Shown here in pieces: positions 39,488-61,696 of a stretch of 64,000 nucleotides of DNA. The DNA comes from Micavibrio sp. (lineage in GTDB: Bacteria; Pseudomonadota; Alphaproteobacteria; UBA2400). A program made the position numbers and the translations under genes. How positions within the stretch are numbered: the first letter of the stretch is position 1; each line of letters begins with the position of its first letter. The notes beneath the pieces were generated by a model. It did not search any database and was not told where the DNA came from. It saw only the letters and a program-made list of their open reading frames with translations. The stretch spans positions 64,156 to 128,155 of the forward strand of contig JBEIQE010000005.1 in the NCBI GenBank assembly GCA_040376705.1, written 5' to 3'.

Positions 39488-42244
39488 ATGCTCAGCGCCC
39501 TCTCCCGCCTCGTTTTAGGGAGCTCAACCGCCCGCAATCTCAAGCGCTACGAGAAGAATGTTGCCAAGATCAACGCGCTCGAACCCGCGATGATCGCCCT
39601 GTCGGACGAACAGCTGAAAGCCAAGACCGCCGAGTTCCGCGACCGCCTCGCCAAAGGCGCTACGGTTGACGACCTGCTGATCGAAGCTTTTGCGGTTGTG
39701 CGTGAAGCCGCCAAACGCACCATCGGTCAGCGCCACTTTGATGTGCAGCTCATGGGCGGTATGGCGCTGAACGACCGTTCGATTGCCGAAATGCGCACCG
39801 GCGAAGGTAAAACCCTCGTAGCAACCTTGGCGGTTTACCTCAACGCACTGCCGGGCAAGGGCGTGCATGTGGTTACCGTAAACGACTACCTCGCACGTCG
39901 CGACAGTAGCTGGATGAGCCAGATCTACGGCTTCCTTGGCCTCACCACCGGTGTGATTGTGCACGGCCTTGATGATACGCAGCGCCGCAATGCTTATGCC
40001 TGCGATATTACCTACGGTACCAATAACGAATTCGGGTTTGATTACCTGCGCGATAACATGAAGTATGGCCTGAATGAGATGGTCATGCGCGGCTTCCACT
40101 TTGCGGTGGTCGACGAAGTTGACTCGATCCTGGTTGACGAAGCCCGCACCCCGCTCATCATCTCCGGCCCCTCCACCGACTCATCCGATCTCTACCAGAA
40201 GATCGATGTGCTGATGAAAAAGCTGCAGCCCGAAGATTACGATAAGGAAGAAAAAACCAAGTCAGTCGTGCTGACCGAGCTGGGTACCGAGCGTATGGAA
40301 GAATGGCTGCGCGAAGCCGGCCTGCTCGAAATTGGCGGTCTTTATGATGTGCAGAACGTAGCGCTGGTCCACCATGTAAACGCTGCGCTTAAGGCGCATA
40401 AGCTGTTTACCAGCAATGTTGATTATCTGGTGAAGGACAACAAGGTCATCATCATCGATGAGTTTACCGGCCGCATGATGGAGGGCCGCCGTTATTCAGA
40501 CGGTCTGCATCAGGCGCTTGAAGCCAAAGAGCATGTGGCCATTCAGCGCGAAAACCAGACTCTCGCGAGCATCACCTTCCAGAACTACTTCCGCCTCTAC
40601 CCCAAGCTCGCAGGTATGACCGGTACGGCGATGACCGAAAAGCAGGAATTCGGCGAGATTTACGGCCTTGATGTAACCGTACTGCCCACCAACGTACCGG
40701 TTGCCCGTATAGACCATGAAGATGCGATCTATCTCAACCAGAAGGGCAAGTATCAGGCAATTATCCAGCTCATTAAAGAGTGCGCCGAGCGCCATCAGCC
40801 GGTGCTGGTCGGTACCGTTTCGATTGAAAAATCAGAGCTGCTCTCAGCCGCCCTCACCAAGGCGGGCGTGAAGCATAATGTGCTCAACGCCAAGTTCCAC
40901 GAGACCGAAGCCGAGATCGTCGCGCAGGCTGGCCGTCCGGGTGCAATTACCATCGCCACCAATATGGCAGGCCGCGGTACCGATATTCAGCTCGGTGGTA
41001 ACATCGAGATGCGCATCAAGAGCGAGCTCAAGGACATGCCGGAAGGCCCCGCACGTGATGATGCGATTGCTACCATTAAAACCGAAGTTATGGCCGCACG
41101 CGAGCTGGTACGCAATGTAGGTGGTCTGTTTGTTATTGGCACCGAGCGCCATGAATCACGCCGTATCGATAACCAGCTACGTGGCCGTTCGGGCCGTCAG
41201 GGCGACCCCGGTGCCTCAAAGTTCTTCCTCGCGCTTGATGACGACCTGATGCGCATTTTCGGCACCAACCGTTACGCTGGCATGATGGAAAAGATGGGCA
41301 TGACCGAAGACATGCCGGTGCACGACCGCTGGATTTCAAAAGCGCTCGAGAAAGCACAGCAGAAGGTTGAAGAGCGCAACTTCGATATTCGCAAAAACCT
41401 GCTGAAGTTCGATAACGTAATGAACGATCAGCGCAAGGTCATTTATGAGCAGCGCCGTGAGCTGATGGACAGCAAGGATGTATCCGACGTTATTCAGGAT
41501 ATGCGCCATGAAGTGATTGCCGATGCTGTGCGCGCGGCCATTCCCGAAGGGGCTTATGCCGAGCATTGGAACATCGAAGGTCTGACCGCCGATGCCAAGC
41601 GCGTGCTGGGTCTTGACCTGCCGATTGCCGCCTGGGCCGCTGAAGAAGGCATTGCCGAAATCGAAATCCGCGATCGCCTGACCAAGGAAGCTGACGAGCG
41701 TTATGCCGCCAAGGTGGCCAAGTATACGCCCGACCTCATGCGTCATGCCGAGAAAAACGTATTGCTGCAGCTGCTGGATCAGGGCTGGAAAGAGCATCTT
41801 CTGGGCCTCGACCATCTGCGTCAGGGCATCGGCCTGCGTTCGATGGGTCAGCGCGACCCGCTGAACGAATACAAGCGCGAAGCGTTTGAACTGTTCGGGG
41901 CACTGCTGGATAACCTGCGTGAGCAGGTAACACAGACCCTCATGCGCCTCGAGATTCGCGTGGCCACACCTGAGATGATGATGCCCCAGGGTCCGCGCCC
42001 GCAGGATATGCAGATGATACACCCCAGTGCCGAGCCGATGCTGGTCGGGGCCGAGGCCGAAGTGCCCAGCGCCATGCCCGCTGGCATGAGCCGCCAGGGC
42101 TCGGTGCCGATGCCCGCGCCCAAGCCGCTGCGCAAAATGGAAGTTGATCTGCGCGACCCCACCACCTGGGGCGATACCCCGCGCAATAACGTTTGCCCCT
42201 GCGGTTCGGGCAAGAAGTACAAACACTGCCACGGCAAGGTTTAA
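39488..42244 (+). CDS. secA: preprotein translocase ATPase SecA
   Basis: 918 aa; Walker [18 protein letters not shown]-like [20 protein letters not shown]-terminal zinc-binding [14 protein letters not shown]. Confidence 0.97.
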
Positions 42245-42328: not shown

Positions 42329-43204
42329 ATGAGCCAGTCCCACATCAGCATCAACTGTGCTGCAGCGCCTTATAACCCGCTGCCGGTTATTGATGCTGCC
42401 TTTGCACAAGTGGCCCGCATCCGCGCCAACAGCACCGCGCCCATATTTATTCTCGCGGGCGAACAGCATAACGACCAGATCGAAACATTCCTGCCCTATG
42501 TGGCAGCCCATCGCGCTGGTTTACTGGGTGGCACTACAATTCCTCACCAGCTTGCGACCCTGCAATTTGCCCTCGAGCGCCCGCATGATACGCTGCAGAA
42601 GGATCTGACCAAGTTTAAGAAAGACCTTCCCGGTCTGATAAAGCCGCACGATAGGCCATCGGTTCAGCTCGCCCGCATCCTGAGTTTTTATGGCAATGGC
42701 GCTGGCAACCCACAGGATGCCTCACGCGTTATGCTCACGGCTTTTACAGATAACAACGTGCCACTGATCGCTGTCGATGCCAGTATCAAATGGGGCCGGG
42801 TCTTCCCGTTCCTTGACCCCAAGGATGAGCTGACGCGCCAGTTCATGCCTGACGGAGAACCAAGCCACCACCTCGGATTCATGGCGGGCGAACCCCGCGC
42901 AATGCATAGCCGCAACCGGCTTATGGCGCATTTGCTGCAGCAACAGGCGAGCACCCCCAACGCGCTGATCTGGATGAACTGCGGGTATGAGCACCTGTTT
43001 GACGATGCCAAGCACTCAGTGTCCGGCCTCGCAGGCCTGCTAAATGGTCATGTTCTGGTAATTGCCAATACGGCGCATCTGCCCGCCAGTCAGCCAGCAA
43101 CTGACGCATTAATCGTTTTCAGTGATCTGGCTGACACCAGGAATAGTCAAACTGCAACGGCGCATGTTTTGCGCCACCTCAGGCAGGCAACGCCCTCACC
43201 TTAA
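42329..43204 (+). CDS. hypothetical protein X1 (291 aa); possible TIKI/TraB/ChaN/GumN-superfamily fold
   Basis: Two GxxH motifs in the two halves (FILAGEQHND and WMNCGYEHL), reminiscent of the pseudo-twofold TIKI/TraB/EreA/ChaN superfamily. Assignment by eye only. Confidence 0.45.
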   Translation: MSQSHISINCAAAPYNPLPVIDAAFAQVARIRANSTAPIFILAGEQHNDQIETFLPYVAAHRAGLLGGTTIPHQLATLQFALERPHDTLQKDLTKFKKDLPGLIKPHDRPSVQLARILSFYGNGAGNPQDASRVMLTAFTDNNVPLIAVDASIKWGRVFPFLDPKDELTRQFMPDGEPSHHLGFMAGEPRAMHSRNRLMAHLLQQQASTPNALIWMNCGYEHLFDDAKHSVSGLAGLLNGHVLVIANTAHLPASQPATDALIVFSDLADTRNSQTATAHVLRHLRQATPSP

Positions 43205-43262
43205 CGGCATTAACCATAATACCGGCTTGCACTGCGCCAAGCAGCATTGCTACCCTTCGTGC

Positions 43263-43856
43263 ATGCTTAACCGCTTCAACACCCTTGGCACTCGCGCCGC
43301 AGTACGCAGCGTTCAAAGCATCATGCCGCCGGCTCTGCCCGAGATTCAAGACTGGTTACGCAGCAGTGGCGTGCACAAGGCCACACTATTCGGCAGCTCG
43401 CTCTATGCCACCCAGCTGGGCCACCCTAACCGGATTAACGATCACGATCTGATTATTGGCCAGACCGATCTGCGTTGGTGGAAGCTGCGCGAGCGCCTGG
43501 CCCGCACCGCACGTATGGAATACTCAACCGACCACCCGCTGCAGCCCAAGCGGCTTTTCTATACCCTGCCCAGCGGCGTTAAAACCGATGTCTGCCTTTC
43601 ATACGCACCGCGCAGCCCGCGCTTCATGGCCGAGCATGCGCTGTTTGGCATTTCTGCCATTGCGGCAGATGTGTTCACCAAGCAGGTCTGGGTACGGCCT
43701 GAGTTTGAACAGCATATGCGTGAGCATGTCATCCGCCCGCTCAACACTGACGATACAGGCCTTATTCTCCGCTACGCCGATAAAATGTCTGACAAGTTCC
43801 CGGATTTCAGGGTTGATCTGGGCTCGGCCTACCGGCCCAAAAACCATTATGCCTGA
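43263..43856 (+). CDS. Pol-beta-superfamily nucleotidyltransferase-like protein P1 (intact hG[GS]..DhD motif)
   Basis: ..ATLFGSSLYATQLGHPNRINDHDLIIG.. matches the minimal NTase signature (cf. FGSxxxG..SDhDhhh). Downstream ..GVKTDVCLS.. as candidate third acidic residue. Start at Met48 of the track ORF (43122..43856). Confidence 0.5.
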   Translation: MLNRFNTLGTRAAVRSVQSIMPPALPEIQDWLRSSGVHKATLFGSSLYATQLGHPNRINDHDLIIGQTDLRWWKLRERLARTARMEYSTDHPLQPKRLFYTLPSGVKTDVCLSYAPRSPRFMAEHALFGISAIAADVFTKQVWVRPEFEQHMREHVIRPLNTDDTGLILRYADKMSDKFPDFRVDLGSAYRPKNHYA

Positions 43857-43926
43857 TTAACCTATCTCGCCTTGCACAATAGCCACGCCGCTTGCTAGCC
43901 TGCCCGAAAGTAAACAGGGGGCAAAT

Positions 43927-44349
43927 ATGGGTGAGGCAGTTTCACAGGTCAGTCCACAATTCTCGGACCTCGTACGCCGGCGCGAGCTGAGCCTGGTCGC
44001 GCCAACGCGCCATGCCGAAGTCGCCGAGCAGCTTGATGACAGCATCATGCGCCCGCTGCTGGATGAGCAGCTACGCGAATGTATTTTCAACTTCGCACAA
44101 CTCGCCCAGCCTACCGGCACACGGATTGTCAGTGATAACGGGCTCGACCCTGTATTGGCCTATGCGCTCTTCACCGACATACCGGTTTTGCCGCAAGACC
44201 GGGCCGAAGCCGAAGAGCTGGCCTGCGATGAATTCCGCCGCCTCGCCGCACTGGATGATGAAAGCATTCCCGGTGCAGCGCTTACTTTATGCCCGAATGG
44301 CGAGGTTACCCTGCGCCCTGTCATGCAAATGAGGATGATTATACGATGA
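43927..44349 (+). CDS. hypothetical protein X2 (140 aa)
   Basis: Acidic small protein. Stop overlaps start of next gene (ATGA). Confidence 0.4.
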   Translation: MGEAVSQVSPQFSDLVRRRELSLVAPTRHAEVAEQLDDSIMRPLLDEQLRECIFNFAQLAQPTGTRIVSDNGLDPVLAYALFTDIPVLPQDRAEAEELACDEFRRLAALDDESIPGAALTLCPNGEVTLRPVMQMRMIIR

Positions 44350-44864
44350 GCGAAACCTATGCCATTAACGGCCTGCAGTTCAGCCGCCCGTTCCGCACCA
44401 TCATCGAGCCGCACTTCCAGCTGCTCGAACTTGTGGGCGCTAAAGACGCACTGCTTTATGGCAGCTCCATCTGGGCGATCGACCATTTGCAGCTGCGGCC
44501 CGAGCAGCCGTTCAACTACCTCGCCTTCCTGCGGAAGTCGGAGCTGATGCCGATGGCGCGCAAAATGCAAACGACACTCGCCAATTCAGCGGTGGTCGTC
44601 ACCCCAAGAGCCAAGGAAATGGCCATCGAGTTCAAGGCGCGGTTCAATGCCAAGCCGCTTAACATCATCTTCTTCCACGAGCGAATGCCGAGCATTGCCG
44701 AAGTCATAGAAGCTGCCCCCACCGTGGCCGCTGCCGCCATCATGACGCGGCATCAGCAAATCGAGGTAAGCGCCGCCTACAACAACGCCCGCCAGCAAGG
44801 CGGTATTGCACCGCAACCGAATACCTCAGCCAAGAGCCATGCATTTAGTTGGATTTATGAGTAA
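44346..44864 (+). CDS. degenerate paralog P2 of the NTase-like protein
   Basis: ..ALLYGSSIWAIDHLQLRPEQPFNYLAF.. aligns with P1's GSS..DHDLII but lacks the acidic pair. Start at Met20 of the track ORF (44289..44864), translationally coupled to X2. Confidence 0.45.
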   Translation: MSETYAINGLQFSRPFRTIIEPHFQLLELVGAKDALLYGSSIWAIDHLQLRPEQPFNYLAFLRKSELMPMARKMQTTLANSAVVVTPRAKEMAIEFKARFNAKPLNIIFFHERMPSIAEVIEAAPTVAAAAIMTRHQQIEVSAAYNNARQQGGIAPQPNTSAKSHAFSWIYE

Positions 44865-44944
44865 TTTTATTGCTCAAAAAGATGTTGACGGGCAAATTTA
44901 AACCATACTAAGGTTCCTGCCATACAAATTTGCAGGAGCTTCTT

Positions 44945-45433
44945 ATGCAGCGCACAAACGACTCACCCGCGATCACCTCCGCCACCGCTCAGGCCTTCAA
45001 ATTCCTGAGCCAGCTTGGCCTGCGTGAACCGGTGGTCTTTGGCGAAGACGTGGACGCCAGCGCTACCAACAAGCGCAGCGGTAAAGTGCACCTGCAGGTG
45101 GTTGCCGCCCTGCCCGAAGGCCAGAACCCGGTGGCCAGCTGGTTGCGCCTGACGCAAAAGCTGAGCGCCGCCACCAGGCTCAACTCGCGCCGCGCCCCCG
45201 GCGAGATCATGCCACGCGAAGTGATGTTCTATAACGACCAGAGCCAGTTTGGCGTGCTCATCGGCTCGACCCATCTGCACGTGCAGGTAAGTGAGAAGCC
45301 GGTTGCTGCCATGGATATTCTGGCACGCCAGCCGGTCGAGCAGCAGGTAGCCGTGCATACAGCGCAAGGCAGCCTTGCACGTACCGAAACGCAGGCACGC
45401 AAAGACCTGCGCATGCAGCTGGAACTCGCATAA
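44945..45433 (+). CDS. hypothetical protein X3 (163 aa)
   Basis: AGGAG Shine-Dalgarno about 7 nt upstream of ATG 44945. Contains ..VVFGEDVDASATNKRSGKVHLQVV.. weakly resembling the same G[SD]..h.hhh segment. Confidence 0.4.
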   Translation: MQRTNDSPAITSATAQAFKFLSQLGLREPVVFGEDVDASATNKRSGKVHLQVVAALPEGQNPVASWLRLTQKLSAATRLNSRRAPGEIMPREVMFYNDQSQFGVLIGSTHLHVQVSEKPVAAMDILARQPVEQQVAVHTAQGSLARTETQARKDLRMQLELA

Positions 45434-45539
45434 ACAGCGATTAACTCAGCTGTCAGACTGACGCATGGGTAAGCGCAAAATTTCATACAATCGCGCTTGA
45501 CCTTGCGGGCCGAGAAGCCGAATAGAGCATCTTACCAAC

Positions 45540-46127
45540 ATGCTTATCAACGGCCCCATCTTCAGTTATGAGCCCGCCACCATCTCGGCCCTGTACGAGA
45601 ATGTGCTCACTCGTGATTTTGAACTGCTGCAGCGTATTGGTATGCGCGGTGCTGTGGCTTATGGCGATGCGCTGCGCGATGCCGATAACGAAAGCCCCAC
45701 ACATCAGTTCAATTACTATGGCCAGCTGCCACTGGCCAGCAGCAGCTTAACTGCGCTTAGCCTTGTGACCCGCGGCCTGTTGCGCGAGCTCAAGGGCACC
45801 GCCCTGCAAAGCCTGAAGGCCACACAAAACGATAACGCCATGCGCTTTACCTTTACGCTTGAGGGCCGCAAGCTCGACATTACCATGCTTAACAATTGCG
45901 CCCCAGGGGCCGAACTGGCTGCGCGCGCCGCGCCCATCGGCCTTTCGGGTATTGCTGTTAACGATCGGGGCTTCTGCTTCGCCAGCGAAGCCTACCTTGA
46001 CGATAAATCCCTAAAAACCATGACAATAAAACGTGACATGGACCCCAGCGATCGTCATTATGCCCGCAAGCAAGCAGGCTGCCTTTTGGCCCTGCCCGCT
46101 TACAAAGGTTTCAAAATCTGCGGGTGA
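45540..46127 (+). CDS. degenerate paralog P3 of the NTase-like protein
   Basis: ..AVAYGDALRDADNESPTHQFNYYGQL.. ; shares RDADN and FNY elements with P4 and P2 respectively. Confidence 0.45.
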   Translation: MLINGPIFSYEPATISALYENVLTRDFELLQRIGMRGAVAYGDALRDADNESPTHQFNYYGQLPLASSSLTALSLVTRGLLRELKGTALQSLKATQNDNAMRFTFTLEGRKLDITMLNNCAPGAELAARAAPIGLSGIAVNDRGFCFASEAYLDDKSLKTMTIKRDMDPSDRHYARKQAGCLLALPAYKGFKICG

Positions 46128-46133
46128 TTTAAC

Positions 46134-46709
46134 ATGGACCATACGCCTCGTGCCCTTCCACCTTATCTGGAAGAGCTTCGTGATCTTTCAAGCGCCATGG
46201 GCGTAACCAAATCACTGCTGGTAGGTAGCGCCTTGCGCGATGCCGATAACGGCATTCCGGTTACCTCCTACAGCCTCTACATGCTGCCCACGCGCGAAAT
46301 ACCCACCCATAAGGCAATTGAAATCTTCATCAAGGAAAGCGGCCCCGGCAGCCGCCTCATGCGCAGCTTTAACAACAAGCCACGACATGAAGTGCGTATG
46401 GCCACCGGCCAGATTGCCAATATCAACTTCTGCCATGAAGCCTGGATGCTTGAAGCCGAAACCATTGTTAATCGCGTTCCCAACGGACTCTCGGCCGTCG
46501 CGATGGATCTGTTCACGGGTGAGATCAAGAGAACCGAGCTTTATATGCTCGACCGCAATGAAGGCGTGATTACGCAAGCCGTTCCCTCACATGACCTCGG
46601 CAATCTGGTGGCCCTGAGTGTGCAAAAGCGCTACCCCACCTACCCGATTATGGCAGACGGTAACAAGCAGGTGCTATACCCGCCGCTCAAGAGCGTGGCG
46701 CTGGCTTAA
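46134..46709 (+). CDS. degenerate paralog P4 of the NTase-like protein
   Basis: ..SLLVGSALRDADNGIPVTSYSLYML.. (compare P3 YGDALRDADNESP). 6-bp gap from P3. Confidence 0.45.
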   Translation: MDHTPRALPPYLEELRDLSSAMGVTKSLLVGSALRDADNGIPVTSYSLYMLPTREIPTHKAIEIFIKESGPGSRLMRSFNNKPRHEVRMATGQIANINFCHEAWMLEAETIVNRVPNGLSAVAMDLFTGEIKRTELYMLDRNEGVITQAVPSHDLGNLVALSVQKRYPTYPIMADGNKQVLYPPLKSVALA

Positions 46710-46712
46710 CGC

Positions 46713-47387
46713 CTAGCGATTACGGTTGTTGCCGAAAGTCGGGCTGCGGAAAGTAAATTCGCTGCGGCGGAAGTTCTGATCGGTCTTGATGTCCGACAGC
46801 ATGACCTCAGTAGTCACGCCCTGCGCATCAAGCACGCGCCAGCCCAGAATCTGCATTGGCACTTCCTGCATCACCAGCGTCATTTCGCCAGCCTGCGGGT
46901 CTTTGGCCGAGCGCACGGTTACTTCCATTTGCGTAGGATTGGGGTGGCTGACCTTGGCCACCGTCACATCATCGCCACTGAAGTTGAGGTTACGCTTCAA
47001 GAGGAAGCCCGCCAGCGTATCGTCAATACCAGTCTGGCTCTGCTGCTTCATCGCATCATCCCACTGATAGATGTTGGTGCCATCCGCAATGATGAAATCC
47101 TTGCTCGGGGCATCGTACTGAATGTGTACGCGGCCCGGGCGCCAGAGCTTGAAATTGCCGGTTACCTCGCCCACGCTGCCGTCAAGCTGGGTGGCGCGCT
47201 GGGTAAAGCGTGCAGCCAAAGGCTTGAGGCCATTAAAGTAATCTTCGATGCGCTTGAGGTCGCGCTGGTCCTGCTCCGAAATGGTAATCGGCGCGGGTGC
47301 GTCATCCACAGGGGTTGCCGCCTGTGCAACAGGCAGGGCCGAAAAGACGAGAAGGGCTACAAGAGCAGGGCGAAGGAGCATGTTCAT
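46713..47387 (-). CDS. lolA: outer-membrane lipoprotein carrier protein LolA
   Basis: Signal peptide MNMLLRPALVALLVFSALPVAQA; ..ARFTQRATQLDGSVGEVTGNFKLWRPGRVHIQYD..DGTNIYQWD.. parallels E. coli LolA FTQ/LW/DG..LW.Y pattern; 224 aa. Confidence 0.75.
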   Translation of the reverse strand: MNMLLRPALVALLVFSALPVAQAATPVDDAPAPITISEQDQRDLKRIEDYFNGLKPLAARFTQRATQLDGSVGEVTGNFKLWRPGRVHIQYDAPSKDFIIADGTNIYQWDDAMKQQSQTGIDDTLAGFLLKRNLNFSGDDVTVAKVSHPNPTQMEVTVRSAKDPQAGEMTLVMQEVPMQILGWRVLDAQGVTTEVMLSDIKTDQNFRRSEFTFRSPTFGNNRNR

Positions 47388-55040: not shown

Positions 55041-55094
55041 AAGCTTGGATTCGTCGTCCAGCTGTTGTTAAGCTCCCTGCGGGAGACAACAATA

Positions 55095-55529
55095 ATGAAA
55101 CCCTTGGGCAGACGAACAGGTATGGACCTCGATAATCTCGAAAGCCGTAAGGACTCCGATATTCTGGCAAGCTTCCACGGCGTTGAGCAAGTCTATGACG
55201 AGGCTCAGTGCAAGGATGTATTCATGGCCGTCATGCAAACGCAGGGCGGTGAAGCACGCATGGTTGGCATTACCCAGATCATGGGTCTGCGCATGGCCTT
55301 CACCATGACCAGTGAAGCGAATGCCGGCAGCGCCAAGCGCTTTGCCCTCTTGCAGCAGGAAGACTTTGCCACCGAACGCGCCAATGCCGCGATTGAGCTG
55401 GCCATAGAGGCCGCCAAAGCAGGCACGGCACCTGTCATTTTAAGCGCTGAGAACTTCCCGGAGAGTGTGGTGAGCGAGAGCGCCGGTATTTTGGCCCGCT
55501 ATAAAAAGGGCAGCACATTAGGAGGCTAG
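55095..55529 (+). CDS. small hypothetical protein A (member of 4-paralog family)
   Basis: GGAGA Shine-Dalgarno before ATG 55095 (track ORF from 55065). Block ASFHGVEQVYDEAQCKDVFMAVMQTQGGEARMVGI shared with B/C/D. Confidence 0.45.
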   Translation: MKPLGRRTGMDLDNLESRKDSDILASFHGVEQVYDEAQCKDVFMAVMQTQGGEARMVGITQIMGLRMAFTMTSEANAGSAKRFALLQQEDFATERANAAIELAIEAAKAGTAPVILSAENFPESVVSESAGILARYKKGSTLGG

Positions 55530-55530
55530 C

Positions 55531-55971
55531 ATGGCGCACCTGAGTGATATCAAACACCGTAGTGATGATGCGCTTTATGCGCGCTTTCATGGGTTTGAGT
55601 ACGGGCCCGACAACGCTATTCTCGCGGTGATGGAACGTCACGATGGCAAGCCCGAGATGGTGGGTATGGATACGCTCTACCTCATCCATCGCAATTACGA
55701 AGAATGCAAACGCCTGCCGCATCTCACGCCCTATCGCATGAGCCTGCTCGCAAGTGAAGATGCATTGGTGTCAGATGTTGGCGCGCATATGAATGACGTG
55801 CGCATTGCCAGCTTCCCGCCTAAGCGCACAGCTACGTGCCCGACGCAGGAGTTCATCATCGCTGCGCCCAGCTTCCCTGCCAGCATTGAACAACAGGCCG
55901 CAACTGTGTGGCAGAAGTTTAGCGGCACTACACTTGCACGCACTCTCAAGCCTAATCCGGTGCATTCATGA
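55531..55971 (+). CDS. small hypothetical protein B (paralog)
   Basis: ARFHGFEYGPDNAILAVMERHDGKPEMVGM; starts 2 nt after A stop. Confidence 0.45.
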   Translation: MAHLSDIKHRSDDALYARFHGFEYGPDNAILAVMERHDGKPEMVGMDTLYLIHRNYEECKRLPHLTPYRMSLLASEDALVSDVGAHMNDVRIASFPPKRTATCPTQEFIIAAPSFPASIEQQAATVWQKFSGTTLARTLKPNPVHS

Positions 55972-56372
55972 AGTTTCCGTGGCGCAAGAGTGAGCAGAAC
56001 CCGGCCGAGAAAATCGCCAGCTTTCAAGGCGTGCTTGAGGATCTCGATAAAACACCCGTCGCCATGTTTGCACTGGTGAGCGGCAAAGAGTTTGGCCTGA
56101 CCATGGAAGACCTCGGCGAGCTGGTTGAAAACCACAATGAGCTGCTCTTTCACGGCGGCGCCATGCCACCCGAGGAACGTAATGTTATCGCGCGTGAACG
56201 CCAGCTGGCCTATGACGGTGCTTTTGCGCTTTCGCGACAGTTCAACCTGCTGCTCGACGACCGCCTGCGCCCTTACGAAGCGCCCAAAGAACGCCAGCCC
56301 GGGCCGGCGCAAGCCAATGAGTATGCACAACTCATGCAGCGCCTTGCCGTTAGAAGCCTGAAGCGAGAGTAA
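55968..56372 (+). CDS. small hypothetical protein C (paralog)
   Basis: ASFQGVLEDLDKTPVAMFALVSGKEFGLTMEDLGELVENH; 4-bp overlap with B. Confidence 0.45.
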   Translation: MKFPWRKSEQNPAEKIASFQGVLEDLDKTPVAMFALVSGKEFGLTMEDLGELVENHNELLFHGGAMPPEERNVIARERQLAYDGAFALSRQFNLLLDDRLRPYEAPKERQPGPAQANEYAQLMQRLAVRSLKRE

Positions 56373-56374
56373 TC

Positions 56375-56770
56375 ATGCCGTGGTGGAAAACCTGTGAGCA
56401 GATAGCAGCCCAGCGCCTGAACCGTTTTGTGGTTGCCACCACCGATCCGGACGAGGCCTGCATTGCCGTGTTCAAGCGCGAAGATGATGCCGATGTGGGC
56501 CTGACCATGAAGGACCTTGGCGAATTGGTGGAGCGCCATCGCGAGCGCCTTGAAAACAAGCTGACCCCACCTTCACAGCGCGAATGGATGGAGCGCGAGG
56601 TCTCGCTGGCCTTTATTGGTGCACGCCGCCTGCAGCAGGTGTTTGGCCTGCCGCTACACGAAGCCTTCACGCCGCAAACTGCACAGCCCGAGCCTGTGCT
56701 GAACGGCGATAGCGCAAAACTCTATACCGGCTTGATGCGCCGCCTTACCTCGGCTAAACCGGGTTTATGA
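56375..56770 (+). CDS. small hypothetical protein D (paralog)
   Basis: NRFVVATTDPDEACIAVFKREDDADVGLTMKDLGELVERH; near-identical GLTM.DLGELVE block to C. Confidence 0.45.
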   Translation: MPWWKTCEQIAAQRLNRFVVATTDPDEACIAVFKREDDADVGLTMKDLGELVERHRERLENKLTPPSQREWMEREVSLAFIGARRLQQVFGLPLHEAFTPQTAQPEPVLNGDSAKLYTGLMRRLTSAKPGL

Positions 56771-57060
56771 GCAAAACCTACACCATCGTCGAAAAATCGC
56801 AGAACAACAGCATGGGGCCCAAGCAGTTTGGGGGCGCGGGCTGGTGGTTTGTGTTACAGGGTAAGTTTAGCGATATGGCTCCCATGTCGTTTGTCGGCCA
56901 ATTTGGCAGCGTTGTGACCAGTAACGGCCCGCAGGCTGTGGAAGTGGTCGATGCGCAGCTGCGCAACGGTGTGCTCTCGGTCAAGCTTGATGGCACCAAT
57001 GGTGAACTGCTGGACGGAGCGCTGGTAGGCCGTCAGGCCGAGCTGACCATTGGCACCTAG
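56767..57060 (+). CDS. small hypothetical protein E (97 aa, beta-rich)
   Basis: 4-bp overlap with D; ..GAGWWFVLQGKFSDMAPMSFVGQFGSVV.. . Confidence 0.4.
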   Translation: MSKTYTIVEKSQNNSMGPKQFGGAGWWFVLQGKFSDMAPMSFVGQFGSVVTSNGPQAVEVVDAQLRNGVLSVKLDGTNGELLDGALVGRQAELTIGT

Positions 57061-57157
57061 CCGACACTAGACGGCACCCGAACCCTACTTGACGCTCCGC
57101 ACATTCCTGCAACAATTACCTGCATAAGCAGACCACAGAGTTTGCACAACAGGGACT

Positions 57158-57574
57158 ATGGGCATGATCGAGCAACTGGCGCGCCGCCAGCCGGGCAGCT
57201 TTTTAACTACATATGTTGACGTGGTGAGTAACAACGAGCCACGCGGCGGCATTGTGTGCATCTTCCAGCGGAGCGATAGCAAACTGGCCTTTGTGCACGA
57301 GAGCGACCTTATGCACTACGAGCGCCTGCATAACATGCTGAATGACAGTAAATGCGCGCATTTTCCGCTAGTGAAAAACTTCAACCCTGCCTGCCGGGCT
57401 GAAGCAGCGCATGAATGGATGGCGCTTGAAGCCGCCCGCGTGGGCCTGAAACACAAACGCGGGATCGACCCCTACGCCGGCCTCTCGCCTTACGATATTG
57501 CCCGCAAACTGTTCGCACGCTTGCGCAGCGGCATTCCTCCCGCCGGTTATAAAAAGCCGGAAGGGCCGGGTTAA
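57158..57574 (+). CDS. hypothetical protein F (138 aa)
   Basis: Last gene of the same-strand run; basic C-terminus. Confidence 0.4.
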   Translation: MGMIEQLARRQPGSFLTTYVDVVSNNEPRGGIVCIFQRSDSKLAFVHESDLMHYERLHNMLNDSKCAHFPLVKNFNPACRAEAAHEWMALEAARVGLKHKRGIDPYAGLSPYDIARKLFARLRSGIPPAGYKKPEGPG

Positions 57575-57586
57575 CCGGAAATACCT

Positions 57587-58564
57587 TTATTCAAAAGTGG
57601 CAGCGATACGCTGGGTGAGCGCGGGCGAAAGTTTATGTGCCTCATAGGCCTGACGCGCCTCAGCCTGAGCTGTAAGGGCAATTTCCCTTACGCCCGCATC
57701 AGGCCGTTTAGCCAAGACTGACAGACCCTCGAAAACAAGTGCAGGGCGCATATCAGCACTATCTGCTGCGGCGGCGGTCAACCATTCGTTTAGCTGGCGG
57801 TACAGACGCACGGGACCATCGCGCAGGCCATGCTTGCTGCTATCATGCACCAGCACACCGCGCTCGGCATTCGCCTCAAGCACGATGTTATCATTCAGGC
57901 GCAGCTCAGAGTGGGCAGCAAAACCGACAAAAGCCTGCGCTGCCGGATGCGCCTCTAGCGCAGCCTTAAGCTCCGGCGCACCCGACATGGCGTTAAGAAC
58001 ATAAGGATAATTCGAGATGATGGCACCGCGCTGGAACAGGCCCGGAGCGCCAGCGGTCAGGCCCTCAAGTGCGGCCTTGTTCAGTTCGGGGCGGTAGGTT
58101 GCAACTGCGCTGGCCAATTCGCCCACGCCGCAACCCGAGGCACTGCCCAGCAGCATCTGCATACCCTTGGCAACGATATGATCGTCAAGCGCAGGTGCGA
58201 AGAGTGACCAGTCTTTGGCCTTAAGCGCAAACGCTGTGAAGTAAGTGAGATTGTAAGTAACCGGGTTATTTACAACCAGTGCTGTCAGGGTGGTATGCAG
58301 CTCTTCCTGCCCATGCTTGAGCAAGCCTGCATCAGGGCGAATGAACTCAAACACCGGGTTAACCCAATGCGAGCAGCCATCAGCAACATCGCTGCGCACA
58401 AGGTAGCGTATGTCATGTCCAGCAAGTTGGGCTCTGAAGCTCTTGTCGTCACCGATCTTGCTCACGCAATCGGCCCATTCAAATATACGGCCGTTCTTGA
58501 GGCCACGGCGGGCGGCAGAACGATTCCACATTAGGCTGGCGAATTTTGAAACTGGATTTGTCAT
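57587..58564 (-). CDS. hypothetical alpha-helical protein (about 325 aa)
   Basis: Track ORF 57587..58612; start more likely Met17 (MTNPVSKF). No motif recognised. Confidence 0.45.
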   Translation of the reverse strand: MTNPVSKFASLMWNRSAARRGLKNGRIFEWADCVSKIGDDKSFRAQLAGHDIRYLVRSDVADGCSHWVNPVFEFIRPDAGLLKHGQEELHTTLTALVVNNPVTYNLTYFTAFALKAKDWSLFAPALDDHIVAKGMQMLLGSASGCGVGELASAVATYRPELNKAALEGLTAGAPGLFQRGAIISNYPYVLNAMSGAPELKAALEAHPAAQAFVGFAAHSELRLNDNIVLEANAERGVLVHDSSKHGLRDGPVRLYRQLNEWLTAAAADSADMRPALVFEGLSVLAKRPDAGVREIALTAQAEARQAYEAHKLSPALTQRIAATFE

Positions 58565-58737
58565 GCGCCGTTTATAGTTTCCTGAGGGGGAGCACTTCAA
58601 GGTTAATATCAATGGTTAACAGGCCTATTCTCCTGATAAAAACCTGAACTCAATTCGCAGAAATCACAAGTTGCCCGCAAAGCCCACAGACCTCACTTAA
58701 AGTTTTCTTAAACCCCCTGAGGCAGGGTAAAGGCTGC

Positions 58738-59988
58738 GTGGCGGTGAGGGAAAACATGTTCGGTTTTATTTCGCGCCTCTTTGGCCGGGTTTTCTTTTAC
58801 TGCTTCTTCCTGCCACTGCTGGTGATTGCAGCAATAACAGCTCTCGTTTTTGTTGGGCGCGATATCTATAATTACCAGAGCACACAAAATCTGCTGCAGG
58901 CGATGGAGGCCGCTGACCCCACCGATACAGGCAGCTGGGCAACGGCAAATGGCCAGATTGCGCTCATCACTGGGCAGCTGACGGCAGATAGATTATCAGA
59001 CCGTATTACCGATGCCGCGCCGCAGCTGGCGCAATGTGTAGCGCTGGATGTAAATGTCAAAGAGCGCTGGAGCCGTAAGCGTGGCCGCTCATCCAGCAAA
59101 GAGCTGATAGATGAAATACATGTCGCTAACGACCCGCGCGTGGCTGGTATTGCGATTGACCCTGCCTTCCTGCAACCCAAAGATCTTGGGCTGGAGGGCA
59201 TCAGGTTTGGCCGTAACTCGGCCCTTGGGTTTTTGTGCGATGGCGTAAACCCTAATCATACCTGCGAGATCAAAATCACCTGCCTGAATCAGCAGCTGGT
59301 TAGTGCCATGGGCGATATGAGCGGTAACACGGCATGGCGCGTCCTGGCTTACCCCAAGCAGCTGGGTGATGAACACTTGCCCTTGCTGCAGTTAGGCCAG
59401 CAAACACCGCGTGAGTTTGCCAGTACCTTCAAACTGCGCTTCAACAAACTGGGTCCGGCCAATCTCTTCTTTGCCGGGGTTGGCTTCTTCACTGTTCTGG
59501 TTTTCTGTAAAACAAACCGCTTCAAGGCCTTGAGCATGCTGGCCGTTACTGCTGGCCTCATATGGGCGCCTTATGCCCTGCTCGATCTGGCCGAAGTGGC
59601 TTATGCGCCGCTGGTCCTGTTCGTATTTGCAGCGCTTTATCTGTTCAGGCTAACAACCAGCGGCCTGACACCCTTTGCCGAGGGGTTGGCTAGAAAACCT
59701 GCCCCCACCAGCCTGCCTGAGATGATTTACATAACACCAAACTATCTGGCGAGCAGTACCGTCCCGCTTGCAGCCGATAGCAGTTATGATGATCTGGTTG
59801 CACCAGCACTGGCCTATATCAAAGCCCGCCTTAGCCCCCTCACCCTGAGCGCGCTTTCCCCGCAGCAACTGGAAAAGACCGTAACCATGCATATCGAAAC
59901 CCATGCCTGTGAGCGCTGGAAGACACTAACCGAATTGCAGCAAGATGGCCTTGTCGCCAAGGTCATTACCGCGCTGAAAAAGAAGTAG
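58738..59988 (+). CDS. hypothetical integral membrane protein (416 aa)
   Basis: N-terminal TM (FFYCFFLPLLVIAAITALVFV) and central TM cluster (LFFAGVGFFTVLVF..AVTAGLIWAPYALL..LVLFVFAALYLF). Confidence 0.5.
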   Translation: MAVRENMFGFISRLFGRVFFYCFFLPLLVIAAITALVFVGRDIYNYQSTQNLLQAMEAADPTDTGSWATANGQIALITGQLTADRLSDRITDAAPQLAQCVALDVNVKERWSRKRGRSSSKELIDEIHVANDPRVAGIAIDPAFLQPKDLGLEGIRFGRNSALGFLCDGVNPNHTCEIKITCLNQQLVSAMGDMSGNTAWRVLAYPKQLGDEHLPLLQLGQQTPREFASTFKLRFNKLGPANLFFAGVGFFTVLVFCKTNRFKALSMLAVTAGLIWAPYALLDLAEVAYAPLVLFVFAALYLFRLTTSGLTPFAEGLARKPAPTSLPEMIYITPNYLASSTVPLAADSSYDDLVAPALAYIKARLSPLTLSALSPQQLEKTVTMHIETHACERWKTLTELQQDGLVAKVITALKKK

Positions 59989-60011: not shown

Positions 60012-60539
60012 CTAGCGCGCCGCCCAAGTGCGTGGTGGGCCGGTATCAATATGCACATGGCCGTTATTGGGATAGAAGGCTACCCCGCCGCGGTTAAGGC
60101 GCATCGCCACCGCCGCTATATCCTGCCCGGCTATGCCCGCAATCTTTATATCTGCCGCCTGACCTTTAAGGTGATAGCTGTTCTCCGCCACCTGGCCCGA
60201 TTGACGGCGTAGAGCGGCATTGGTCTGTGGCGAACGGTAGCCAGAGGTGACAATCACCACCGTTTGCGGGGGACGGCCCAGACCCGCTACAATATCGGCC
60301 ATAAAGTCCAGAAGCCGCGGATCGACCATCACACCCTCAGGGCTGCGCACATCGCGCATCAGGTAAGAGGCCTGCTGCCAGGCACCAAGGTCGAGCTCGC
60401 CATTCGGGTAGCGATACTGCAAGGTGGCACGCTCGGCGGTGCGCTGGTTCTGGAGCGTGACGATGCCCTGCCCGCGCCGCTCGCTGTAGCTGGCGCAACC
60501 TGCCAGCAGCAAAACCATGATTAAGGCAAGCGCGCGCAT
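60012..60539 (-). CDS. mepK: DUF882 / MepK(YcbK)-like peptidoglycan L,D-endopeptidase, lipoprotein
   Basis: Lipobox LLAGC; ..VIVTSGYRSPQTNAALRRQSGQVAENSYHLKGQAADIKI..GGVAFYPNNGHVHIDTG.. matches the DUF882 (M15-like) SGYR..TN..S.H..G.A.D and H.D motifs. Confidence 0.7.
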   Translation of the reverse strand: MRALALIMVLLLAGCASYSERRGQGIVTLQNQRTAERATLQYRYPNGELDLGAWQQASYLMRDVRSPEGVMVDPRLLDFMADIVAGLGRPPQTVVIVTSGYRSPQTNAALRRQSGQVAENSYHLKGQAADIKIAGIAGQDIAAVAMRLNRGGVAFYPNNGHVHIDTGPPRTWAAR

Positions 60540-61144
60540 TAACCTGCCCCCGCCAATGAGTAACCGCCATCAATGGTCAGCAGCAGTGTGGGCGCTGCAG
60601 GATCGGCCTCGATTTTCTGGCGCAGGCGGTAAATATGCGTCTCGAGCGTATGGGTATCGAGCCCTTCACGATACCCCCAGACGCGCTCAAGCAGCTCATC
60701 GCGCTGCATGCCTGCGCTGCCACTTTCGGCCAGCATGCGCAGCAGGTGCACTTCTTTATCGGTCAGCTTGGTGTGCTCATCGCCCTCGGCACTTAACAAC
60801 ACGCGCTCGAGTGGCAGGCAGACATACGGCCCCACCGCAAATTCTTCTTCTGCCTCGCCGCGCCCAAGTAACAATTGAAGGCGGCTGGCCAACTGGCTCC
60901 AGCGCACCGGCGTTGCAATATCCCCGCCCGGCCCAAGGCGCAGCGCCCTGAAGTTGCGGCAGGGCTCGAGGTCAAACTCGCCATCCGGGTTCAGCAGCAA
61001 AGCATCAGGCTTGGCAGCCAGAGCAGTCTTGAATTCGGCCAGTGTGCGGGCCACAGCCAGCTCCAGCCCCGGCCAGCGCGAGAGCTGCTCGGTGAGCGCA
61101 TCCCTTTGGGCAGTCTGGGGGGCAAACAGGAGGAGACTGGGCAT
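60539..61144 (-). CDS. OmpR/PhoB-type winged-helix regulator with atypical receiver-like N-terminus
   Basis: C-terminal trans_reg_C (..LTDKEVHLLRMLAESGSAGMQRDELLERVWGYREGLDTHTLETHIYRLRQKIE..). N-terminal receiver-like region lacks acidic pocket (LLLFAPQ) and has LLN where the phospho-Asp is expected. Start at Met21 of the track ORF. Confidence 0.55.
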   Translation of the reverse strand: MPSLLLFAPQTAQRDALTEQLSRWPGLELAVARTLAEFKTALAAKPDALLLNPDGEFDLEPCRNFRALRLGPGGDIATPVRWSQLASRLQLLLGRGEAEEEFAVGPYVCLPLERVLLSAEGDEHTKLTDKEVHLLRMLAESGSAGMQRDELLERVWGYREGLDTHTLETHIYRLRQKIEADPAAPTLLLTIDGGYSLAGAG

Positions 61145-61243
61145 AACAAGCGGTAGAATCTGCCAGTTCGCCCTGAAGGGCAATATATAAGTGTTGAGAA
61201 TCAAGCTGCTTGCAGCTGGCGCGGGGCTTGCATCTTAACTCTT

Positions 61244-61696
61244 ATGACCATTGACCTTGGCCAGCTGCCTGCTGCGGGGAATAACCCTGCACACCCCACC
61301 ACCGCTTCCGGCAAGCGGAACTGGTCGTGGCAAGCCGTGCATGGCGATGTGCCCAAACCGAGCGCCGATACTGTGCCCGAGCACGAAGGCGGCTTTGCCG
61401 ACCTGATCGACATTATCAACCCGCTGCAGCACATCCCAATCGTGGGGAACATCTACCGCGCCATGACCGGCGATACGATCAACCCGGTCGGGCGCATTCT
61501 GGGTGGCGGGCTCTTTGGCGGGCCGATTGGTTTTCTCTCCGGTATTGGCAGCACTTTAGTGGCCGAAGGCACCGGAAAGGATGTAGGTGAGCATTTACTC
61601 GCATCACTCTTTGGCGATCAGTCTTCAAGCAATTCAATTACTTCGGTGGCGCAAGCATCCGCTCGCTACGATGCAGCGTCACGCATCCGCATGTAG
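61244..61696 (+). CDS. hypothetical protein (150 aa, Gly-rich C-terminal half)
   Basis: Intact ORF divergent from the regulator; ..GRILGGGLFGGPIGFLSGIGSTLVAEG.. glycine-zipper-like. Confidence 0.4.
   Translation: MTIDLGQLPAAGNNPAHPTTASGKRNWSWQAVHGDVPKPSADTVPEHEGGFADLIDIINPLQHIPIVGNIYRAMTGDTINPVGRILGGGLFGGPIGFLSGIGSTLVAEGTGKDVGEHLLASLFGDQSSSNSITSVAQASARYDAASRIRM

Follow-up and report, generated by a model that had tools for sequence, protein, structure and literature searches.

A six-gene operon of small uncharacterised proteins, with a conserved beta-barrel core and probably five paralogs, in a Micavibrio-like alphaproteobacterium

We analysed a 64,000-nucleotide (nt) stretch of a Micavibrio sp. 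genome assembly (GCA_040376705.1, contig JBEIQE010000005.1, positions 64,156 to 128,155 of the forward strand; hereafter the window), in which six small plus-strand open reading frames (ORFs), A to F, lie between a ubiH-family gene and the next gene. An earlier account made from the letters of this DNA (the sequence-only reading) had placed the six ORFs at 55095-57574 and described them as a tightly coupled operon of small uncharacterised proteins with diverged tandem paralogs; the placement was confirmed and the description is supported by the results below. The gene upstream of the operon encodes a UbiH/UbiF/COQ6-family hydroxylase (TIGR01988, 416 bits versus a cut-off of 225).

Gene A (55095-55529, +) encodes 144 amino acids (aa) and is the quickest-evolving gene of the operon. 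Gene B (55531-55971, +; 146 aa) has an AGGAGG Shine-Dalgarno sequence and starts 1 nt past the A stop codon, the start of gene C (55968-56372, +; 134 aa) overlaps the B stop in an ATGA, gene D (56375-56770, +; 131 aa) begins 2 nt past the C stop, and the start of gene E (56767-57060, +; 97 aa) overlaps the D stop in a second ATGA. Gene F (57164-57574, +; 136 aa, or 138 aa when read from 57158) encodes a basic protein. The junctions from A to F are thus +1, -4, +2, -4 and +97 (+103 with the F start at 57164), in place of the -4, +2, -4, +2 and +97 first listed for them, and relatives have retained these overlaps and near-zero gaps. The ATG at 57164, giving a 136-aa protein and an E-F gap of 103 nt, is most likely the start of F, because it is used in the gene annotation of a public contig with identical sequence and by the orthologues: all F orthologues begin with ML or MI at the equivalent point, and the 138-aa version is not found as such in the protein collection. 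The gene beyond F (57587-58612, -), which had been called divergent, is convergent with the operon instead.

The six ORFs are real genes. Orthologous clusters with an unchanged gene order were found in three related loci, namely L001 (a Joint Genome Institute metagenome contig; A-F), L019 (A-E) and L022 (A-F). Among the four genomes synonymous sites are saturated (proportion of synonymous differences, pS, 0.56-0.82), yet every reading frame is intact. The ratio of nonsynonymous to synonymous differences (pN/pS) ranges from 0.21 to 0.88 across the operon genes, with 0.21-0.31 for E, 0.40-0.57 for C and 0.57-0.88 for A, whose orthologues in L001, L019 and L022 are 33-41% identical. The GC contents at the three codon positions and the codon-adaptation index of the operon genes equal those of ftsK, ubiH and other neighbours, and both alternative frames score much lower in codon usage. 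The idea that some or all of these are chance ORFs in GC-rich DNA could draw on their lack of database names and family matches, but it is effectively refuted by conservation across saturated synonymous divergence, frame-specific codon usage, conserved start contexts and confident structural models.

Upstream of gene A lies a promoter-like element (55045-55073, +) with a -35-like TTGGAT (55045-55050), a 17-nt spacer and a -10-like TTAAGC (55068-55073), followed by a GGGAG Shine-Dalgarno sequence for gene A (55081-55085, +). The arrangement GCTTGGATTC-N13-16-TGTTAAGCTC and then GGGAG recurs before gene A in L019 and L001 as well as in the window, and in a weaker form in L022; the putative promoter is defined by this conservation, as a generic sigma-70 scan did not call it and the counts of the generic promoter and terminator scan were at chance level. 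In L001 no ubiH gene precedes the cluster, which argues that the cluster is its own transcription unit. A GANTC site (GATTC, 55048-55052) sits within the conserved -35-like box in three of the four loci and is missing in L022. Since GANTC is the target of the alphaproteobacterial CcrM methylase, this site is a possible hint at cell-cycle control. No SOS/LexA box of the form GTTC-N7-GTTC was seen by eye in the upstream regions, and an Rfam search of the whole window returned no matches. As a side observation, an S24-peptidase gene adjoins the cluster in L022.

Five of the six genes probably belong to one superfamily, judging from sequence and profile comparison. By BLASTP, A and B are 25% identical over 138 aa and C and D 37% identical over 122 aa, and the motif GLTM[EK]DLGELVE.H, previously reported for C and D, occurs in both exactly. 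We built subfamily alignments from the four genomes (alignment A6 for A/B, A7 for C/D and A8 for F) and compared them by hhalign, which linked A/B to C/D with 92% probability (E value 5.7e-7, 114 columns), A/B to F with 78% (1.8e-5, 87 columns) and C/D to F with 60% (8.8e-5, 106 columns). The subfamily hidden Markov models match members outside their own training sets, and an iterative search of 154 neighbouring ORFs, many of them shadow ORFs, recruited cluster genes only. The paralogy of A-D proposed at the outset therefore stood, with its A/B and C/D pairs and the profile link between them, but it had missed F as a probable fifth paralog. None of the four proteins A-D fits the long regular expression offered for them as written (indels are needed); the first half of the expression fits A, B and C but fails on D.

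The orthologue groups of A, B, C, D and F are separate in a neighbour-joining tree, indicating that the duplications predate the split of the four genomes. Orthologues of A, B, C and D correspond one to one and in the same order in these genomes, and copy number changes only between deep lineages, from zero to five paralogs across related lineages. Orthologues of F are present in L001, L022 and L012, and an F-like gene comes immediately after E in L005, L006 and L015/16. On a short contig, L004 (154-950), two consecutive D-like genes (132 and 131 aa) occupy the place where other genomes have D and then E, pointing to an extra D duplicate in at least one lineage. Taken together, it is well supported that old tandem duplications expanded this alpha/beta family to five copies, with A-D upstream of E and F downstream.

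Gene E, which the sequence-only reading had overlooked in this role, is the conserved, ancestral, non-paralogous core of the locus, a barrel of about 88 aa (97 aa here) unrelated by paralogy to the other five proteins. The alignment of its family (A5) contains the invariant motifs GWW, G..F..MAP, D...R..V and DG....R.A.L. Its identity among the four genomes is 72-77%, against 33-62% for the paralogs and alongside 70-86% for FtsK, UbiH, the M15 peptidase and the regulator, and it was found in all 14 lineages. A detectable superfamily member adjoins E in 7 of the 12 lineages in which both flanks of E are readable, usually overlapping it or 1-10 nt away, or about 50-100 nt away where the neighbour is F; an eighth lineage, L028, has an unverified neighbour of 173 aa without an assigned family.

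The settings of E form a graded series. Four paralogs, E and F are present in the window, L001 and L022; four paralogs and E in L019; two paralogs, E and an F-like gene in L016; two paralogs and E in L021; one or two paralogs, E and an F-like gene in L005; and E with an F-like gene in L006, which is the same locus as L011. E without a detectable paralog partner occurs only in the most distant lineages (L009, L024-27 and L029-31). In L009 it stands alone. In L024-27 a ubiH-family flavin adenine dinucleotide (FAD) hydroxylase gene overlaps E through TAATG (630-670 in L024) with no paralog between them, and in L029-31 a gene for a 358-aa riboflavin synthase-lumazine synthase (RibE-RibH) fusion begins 4 nt past E (5393-5398 in L030).

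The slot that holds the cluster is constant, with ftsK, sometimes together with ubiH, on one side, and a mepK-like M15 peptidase gene, an OmpR-type regulator gene, a gene for a 150-aa protein, yggS and porin genes on the other. FtsK identities among the loci are 66-84%, so that all of them fall within a single clade at family or order level, and neither composition nor codon usage gave signs of horizontal acquisition. It is well supported that the operon is native, vertically inherited and confined to uncultured Micavibrio-like Alphaproteobacteria that form a small clade. An origin as a phage-derived module or prophage remnant, one of the options raised before, found no support: the PHROGs results were at noise level, no match was found in BFVD, IMG/VR, phages or plasmids, GC content and codon usage are native, and the same slot is used in all loci.

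The E family and the alpha/beta family are both new at the level of sequence and fold searches, and both are very rare. Pfam and NCBIfam (at E values up to 1), PHROGs and PADLOC returned nothing above noise for A-F, and Pfam returned nothing recurrent for 30 members of the superfamily and 26 of the E family. Homology to a characterised family, for which phasins and gas-vesicle proteins had been named as examples, came out negative in every library; these two candidates in particular found no support, as Pfam and NCBIfam gave no such match for the six proteins or the 30 and 26 members. Known anti-phage defence systems likewise found no support, PADLOC having no match for A-F or for the two downstream genes X and G described below. 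Searches with PDB sequence profiles gave best E values of 0.05 and 0.35, which is noise. A word-indexed search of 5.8 billion proteins retrieved 4 C/D proteins, 25 relatives of E, all without Pfam domains, and 6 superfamily proteins, and a HMMER search of 1.84 billion representatives with the E profile retrieved three small clusters and contributed only two more distant ones to the family. Among GTDB representative genomes, a first scan found nothing and a second found only a metagenome-assembled genome (MAG) of Micavibrio sp. UBA2400. IMG/VR scans and tblastn searches against phages and plasmids gave no matches, and a literature search on Micavibrionales found nothing on the locus.

Positions of about 35-76 of the E profile also gave eight repeated weak matches in two giant RTX/cadherin-like adhesins, P0036 (1939 aa) and P0038 (2081 aa). 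These matches are probably compositional, reflecting a shared beta-strand repeat pattern (V.D....NGVLSV.LDG.DG), and not homology.

An AlphaFold2 (AF2) model of E, made from 26 sequences (predicted local distance difference test, pLDDT, 85), is a six-stranded beta-barrel. A Foldseek search of the PDB with this model returned generic barrels only (best E value 6e-3, template modelling (TM) score about 0.5-0.58, 9-16% identity). The model superposes in this TM range on the N-terminal barrel of the F1-ATPase alpha/beta subunits, on ribosomal protein L35Ae and on the AlaRS barrel; however, E is free-standing, mildly acidic and without a sequence or profile match to them, and the GWW/MAP motif is a feature of E and not of those barrels. 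The AF2 model of C (9 sequences, pLDDT 80) has a three-stranded sheet (residues 16-44) and a helical hairpin (46-62 and 68-92), followed by a low-confidence proline-rich linker and a C-terminal helix (113-132). Foldseek with the C model gave a best E value of 0.14 in the PDB and no match with an E value below 0.01 in BFVD.

None of the six proteins has a signal peptide or a transmembrane segment; A-E are mildly acidic, and F has an isoelectric point of 9.3. A motif in the C-terminal helix, L-hydrophobic-x-[RK]-[LFY]-x-[ST], is common to all the subfamilies and thus to paralogs that are otherwise 13-20% identical. The layout of A-D and F, in which a folded N-terminal domain, a proline-rich linker of low model confidence and a conserved C-terminal helix motif follow one another, resembles that of SspB-type docking-peptide adaptors, which combine a folded domain and a flexible linker with a short peptide at the C-terminus for binding a common partner. 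The motif does not, however, form the very end of the chain, and neither in sequence nor in fold do the proteins resemble SspB or other adaptors. The comparison is an analogy of how the proteins might work and nothing further.

On this basis we tentatively propose, as a reading that is possible and somewhat less than probable, that the operon encodes a cytoplasmic complex in which E serves as the hub for paralogous, adaptor-like subunits sharing a C-terminal docking motif. The data establish the genes, their paralogy, their co-occurrence and coupling and the predicted folds; the complex is inferred from the coupling and co-occurrence, and physical contact between the subunits, docking through the motif and a role in the cell belong to the inferred part too. 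The six proteins would be soluble cytoplasmic subunits, as suggested by the lack of signal peptides and transmembrane segments. Conservation of the +1, -4, +2 and -4 junctions in relatives suggests stoichiometric co-production, and translational coupling might thus fix the proportions of a hetero-oligomeric assembly. E, ancestral and slowly evolving, would be the common hub. Each paralog would contribute a folded N-terminal domain of a three-stranded sheet and a helical hairpin, a proline-rich linker and the C-terminal helix motif, and the paralogs may act as alternative or co-assembling adaptors that dock by this common motif, plausibly on the aromatic GWW/F..MAP surface of E, while their divergent N-terminal domains may confer different specificities. 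Among the functions that the sequence-only reading had floated for the array, a structural multi-subunit assembly is the best fit, although it too is reached indirectly.

Several observations weigh against this proposal. E stands alone in L009 and is coupled to a ubiH-family gene in L024-27 or to a ribE-ribH fusion in L029-31, so E has a function independent of the paralogs. Obligate subunits of a conserved complex do not usually evolve two to three times quicker than their neighbours, as the paralogs do. In addition, the C-terminal motif is a short, degenerate one, nine sequences went into the AF2 model of C, and the link of F to the superfamily, with hhalign probabilities of 60-78%, is probable at a moderate level and the weakest of the set.

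A bolder form of the proposal is that the assembly of hub and adaptors is specific to Micavibrio-like, possibly predatory, Alphaproteobacteria, with E as a new peptide-binding barrel that uses its GWW patch and the five paralogs as specificity subunits, perhaps tied to the cell cycle. The tie to the cell cycle is suggested by the neighbouring ftsK gene (and parAB in L006) and by the GANTC site in the -35-like box. We regard this extended version as rather unlikely.

Other functions can be proposed for the same genes. Tandem, diverged small paralogs that evolve quicker than their neighbours and vary from zero to five copies between lineages, in a slot that also carries variable, lineage-specific genes (X and G), would fit an orphan array of immunity proteins, with A-D and F directed against polymorphic toxins of competitors or prey. 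However, no gene with a toxin domain adjoins the array in any locus, the neighbours in related loci being ftsK, ubiH, the S24 peptidase gene, the mepK-like M15 gene, the OmpR-type regulator gene, yggS, porin genes, parAB and glnK; in the window, the statement that no toxin, phage or secretion gene is adjacent proved correct over about 13 kb upstream and 7 kb downstream. None of 30 members matches a Pfam Imm or SUKH family, and unlike in immunity arrays of polymorphic-toxin systems, orthology is one to one and the order fixed across four genomes with saturated synonymous divergence, without rapid gain or loss, and the paralogs are tightly coupled to the conserved, unrelated gene E. The immunity array that had been suggested for this locus is thus unlikely. 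In L029, an Imm11-family gene (1677-2306, -) and an adjoining gene for a 478-aa protein lie about 4.7 kb from E, beyond ftsK and secB; it is the sole toxin-system gene seen in the related loci and is not adjacent to the cluster. A related idea, that E is a small toxin and the quick-evolving partners are duplicated neutralisers, gains some appeal from the D-E ATGA junction, where the gene of a quick-evolving partner runs into the start of a small, better conserved gene downstream, as in type II toxin-antitoxin pairs, in which small genes overlap and the less conserved one lies upstream, and from E with one partner being the commonest minimal unit. We consider it highly improbable, because the locus is chromosomally fixed and vertically inherited with native codon usage, E is partnerless in L009, L024-27 and L029-31, where a free toxin would not be tolerated, no toxin or antitoxin family, PADLOC or plasmid match was found, and Foldseek with E gives generic barrels and not toxins of the MazF or CcdB type. 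To our knowledge, five neutralisers for one toxin would also be unprecedented.

The gene neighbourhood itself offers a metabolic alternative, in which E is a ligand- or enzyme-binding barrel working with the UbiH-family FAD hydroxylase in flavin or quinone metabolism and the paralogs are scaffolds. Immediately before the cluster, the window and L019 have a ubiH-family gene, the E start overlaps the stop of such a gene in L024-27, the riboflavin synthase-lumazine synthase fusion gene lies 4 nt after E in L029-31, and the six-stranded barrel of E belongs to the general class that includes lumazine-binding domains. The conserved promoter-like element between ubiH and A nevertheless separates the two, ubiH is not adjacent in L001, L005, L006, L016, L021 and L022, and no riboflavin synthase is among the top 50 Foldseek matches, so that we hold an accessory role in this metabolism to be improbable. 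Direct homology of E to lumazine-binding domains was rejected, as hhalign of alignment A5 with RibE-RibH gave a probability of 0.5% and none of the 26 members matches Pfam Lum_binding. If the proteins were effectors secreted or injected by a Micavibrio-like predator, interaction with prey could drive their quick evolution; one relative does come from the MAG labelled Micavibrio sp. UBA2400, and the family is lineage-restricted and quick-evolving. Against this, the proteins lack signal peptides and transmembrane segments, the adjacent genes include none for secretion, every gene has a pN/pS below 1, E shows the conservation of a housekeeping gene, and the predatory lifestyle of the organism is only putative, which makes an effector role very unlikely.

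Should the proposal of E as a hub with paralogous adaptors hold, a bacterial order that is poorly known and partly predatory would gain a new small-protein assembly; otherwise, the locus still yields a well-delimited family worth a Pfam entry as a domain of unknown function, and no more. Both families lie outside every curated library and have no solved or viral structural neighbour, and may be counted as 'dark matter'. In addition, the operon is unusually clean comparative material, combining a conserved core gene, a dated tandem duplication series of zero to five copies and a fixed position on the chromosome.

Two genes beyond F also lack family matches, the searches with Pfam, NCBIfam, PADLOC and PHROGs giving nothing above noise. 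X (57587-58612, -) encodes 341 aa, and its orthologue was found only in L019 (43% identity). G (58738-59988, +) encodes 416 aa and is, by eye and unscored, a membrane protein; an orthologue occurs in L001 (26% identity) and a 73-aa remnant in L019. A co-occurrence of the operon with these downstream genes (57587-59988), which had been suggested as a check, did not emerge, as X and G do not travel consistently with it, and X and G as obligate partners were rejected: X was found only in the window and L019, and G only in the window and L001, apart from the remnant in L019.

Further downstream (60012-61204, -), the genes for a MepK-like M15 peptidoglycan L,D-endopeptidase and an OmpR-type winged-helix protein are separated by 1 nt. 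The N-terminal half of the latter has no receiver-domain match, its orthologues carry Trans_reg_C only, and most NCBIfam alignments begin near residue 90-140. This pair is kept beside the cluster in most loci. The 150-aa protein encoded at 61244-61696 (+) has no family match and is 52-78% identical in six related loci; its gene is found between the regulator gene and yggS in every case.

Elsewhere in the window, at 43122-46709 (+) between secA (39488-42244) and lolA (46713-47387, -), there is another series of ORFs (140-244 aa) without Pfam matches. Several of them share an N-terminal block (LFGSSLYA, LYGSSIWA, AYGDALRDADN or LVGSALRDADN) that resembles a degenerate nucleotidyltransferase G-S...D.D motif, with pairwise BLAST E values of 1e-3 to 2e-5. 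In L006, three small uncharacterised ORFs lie at the equivalent place after secA.

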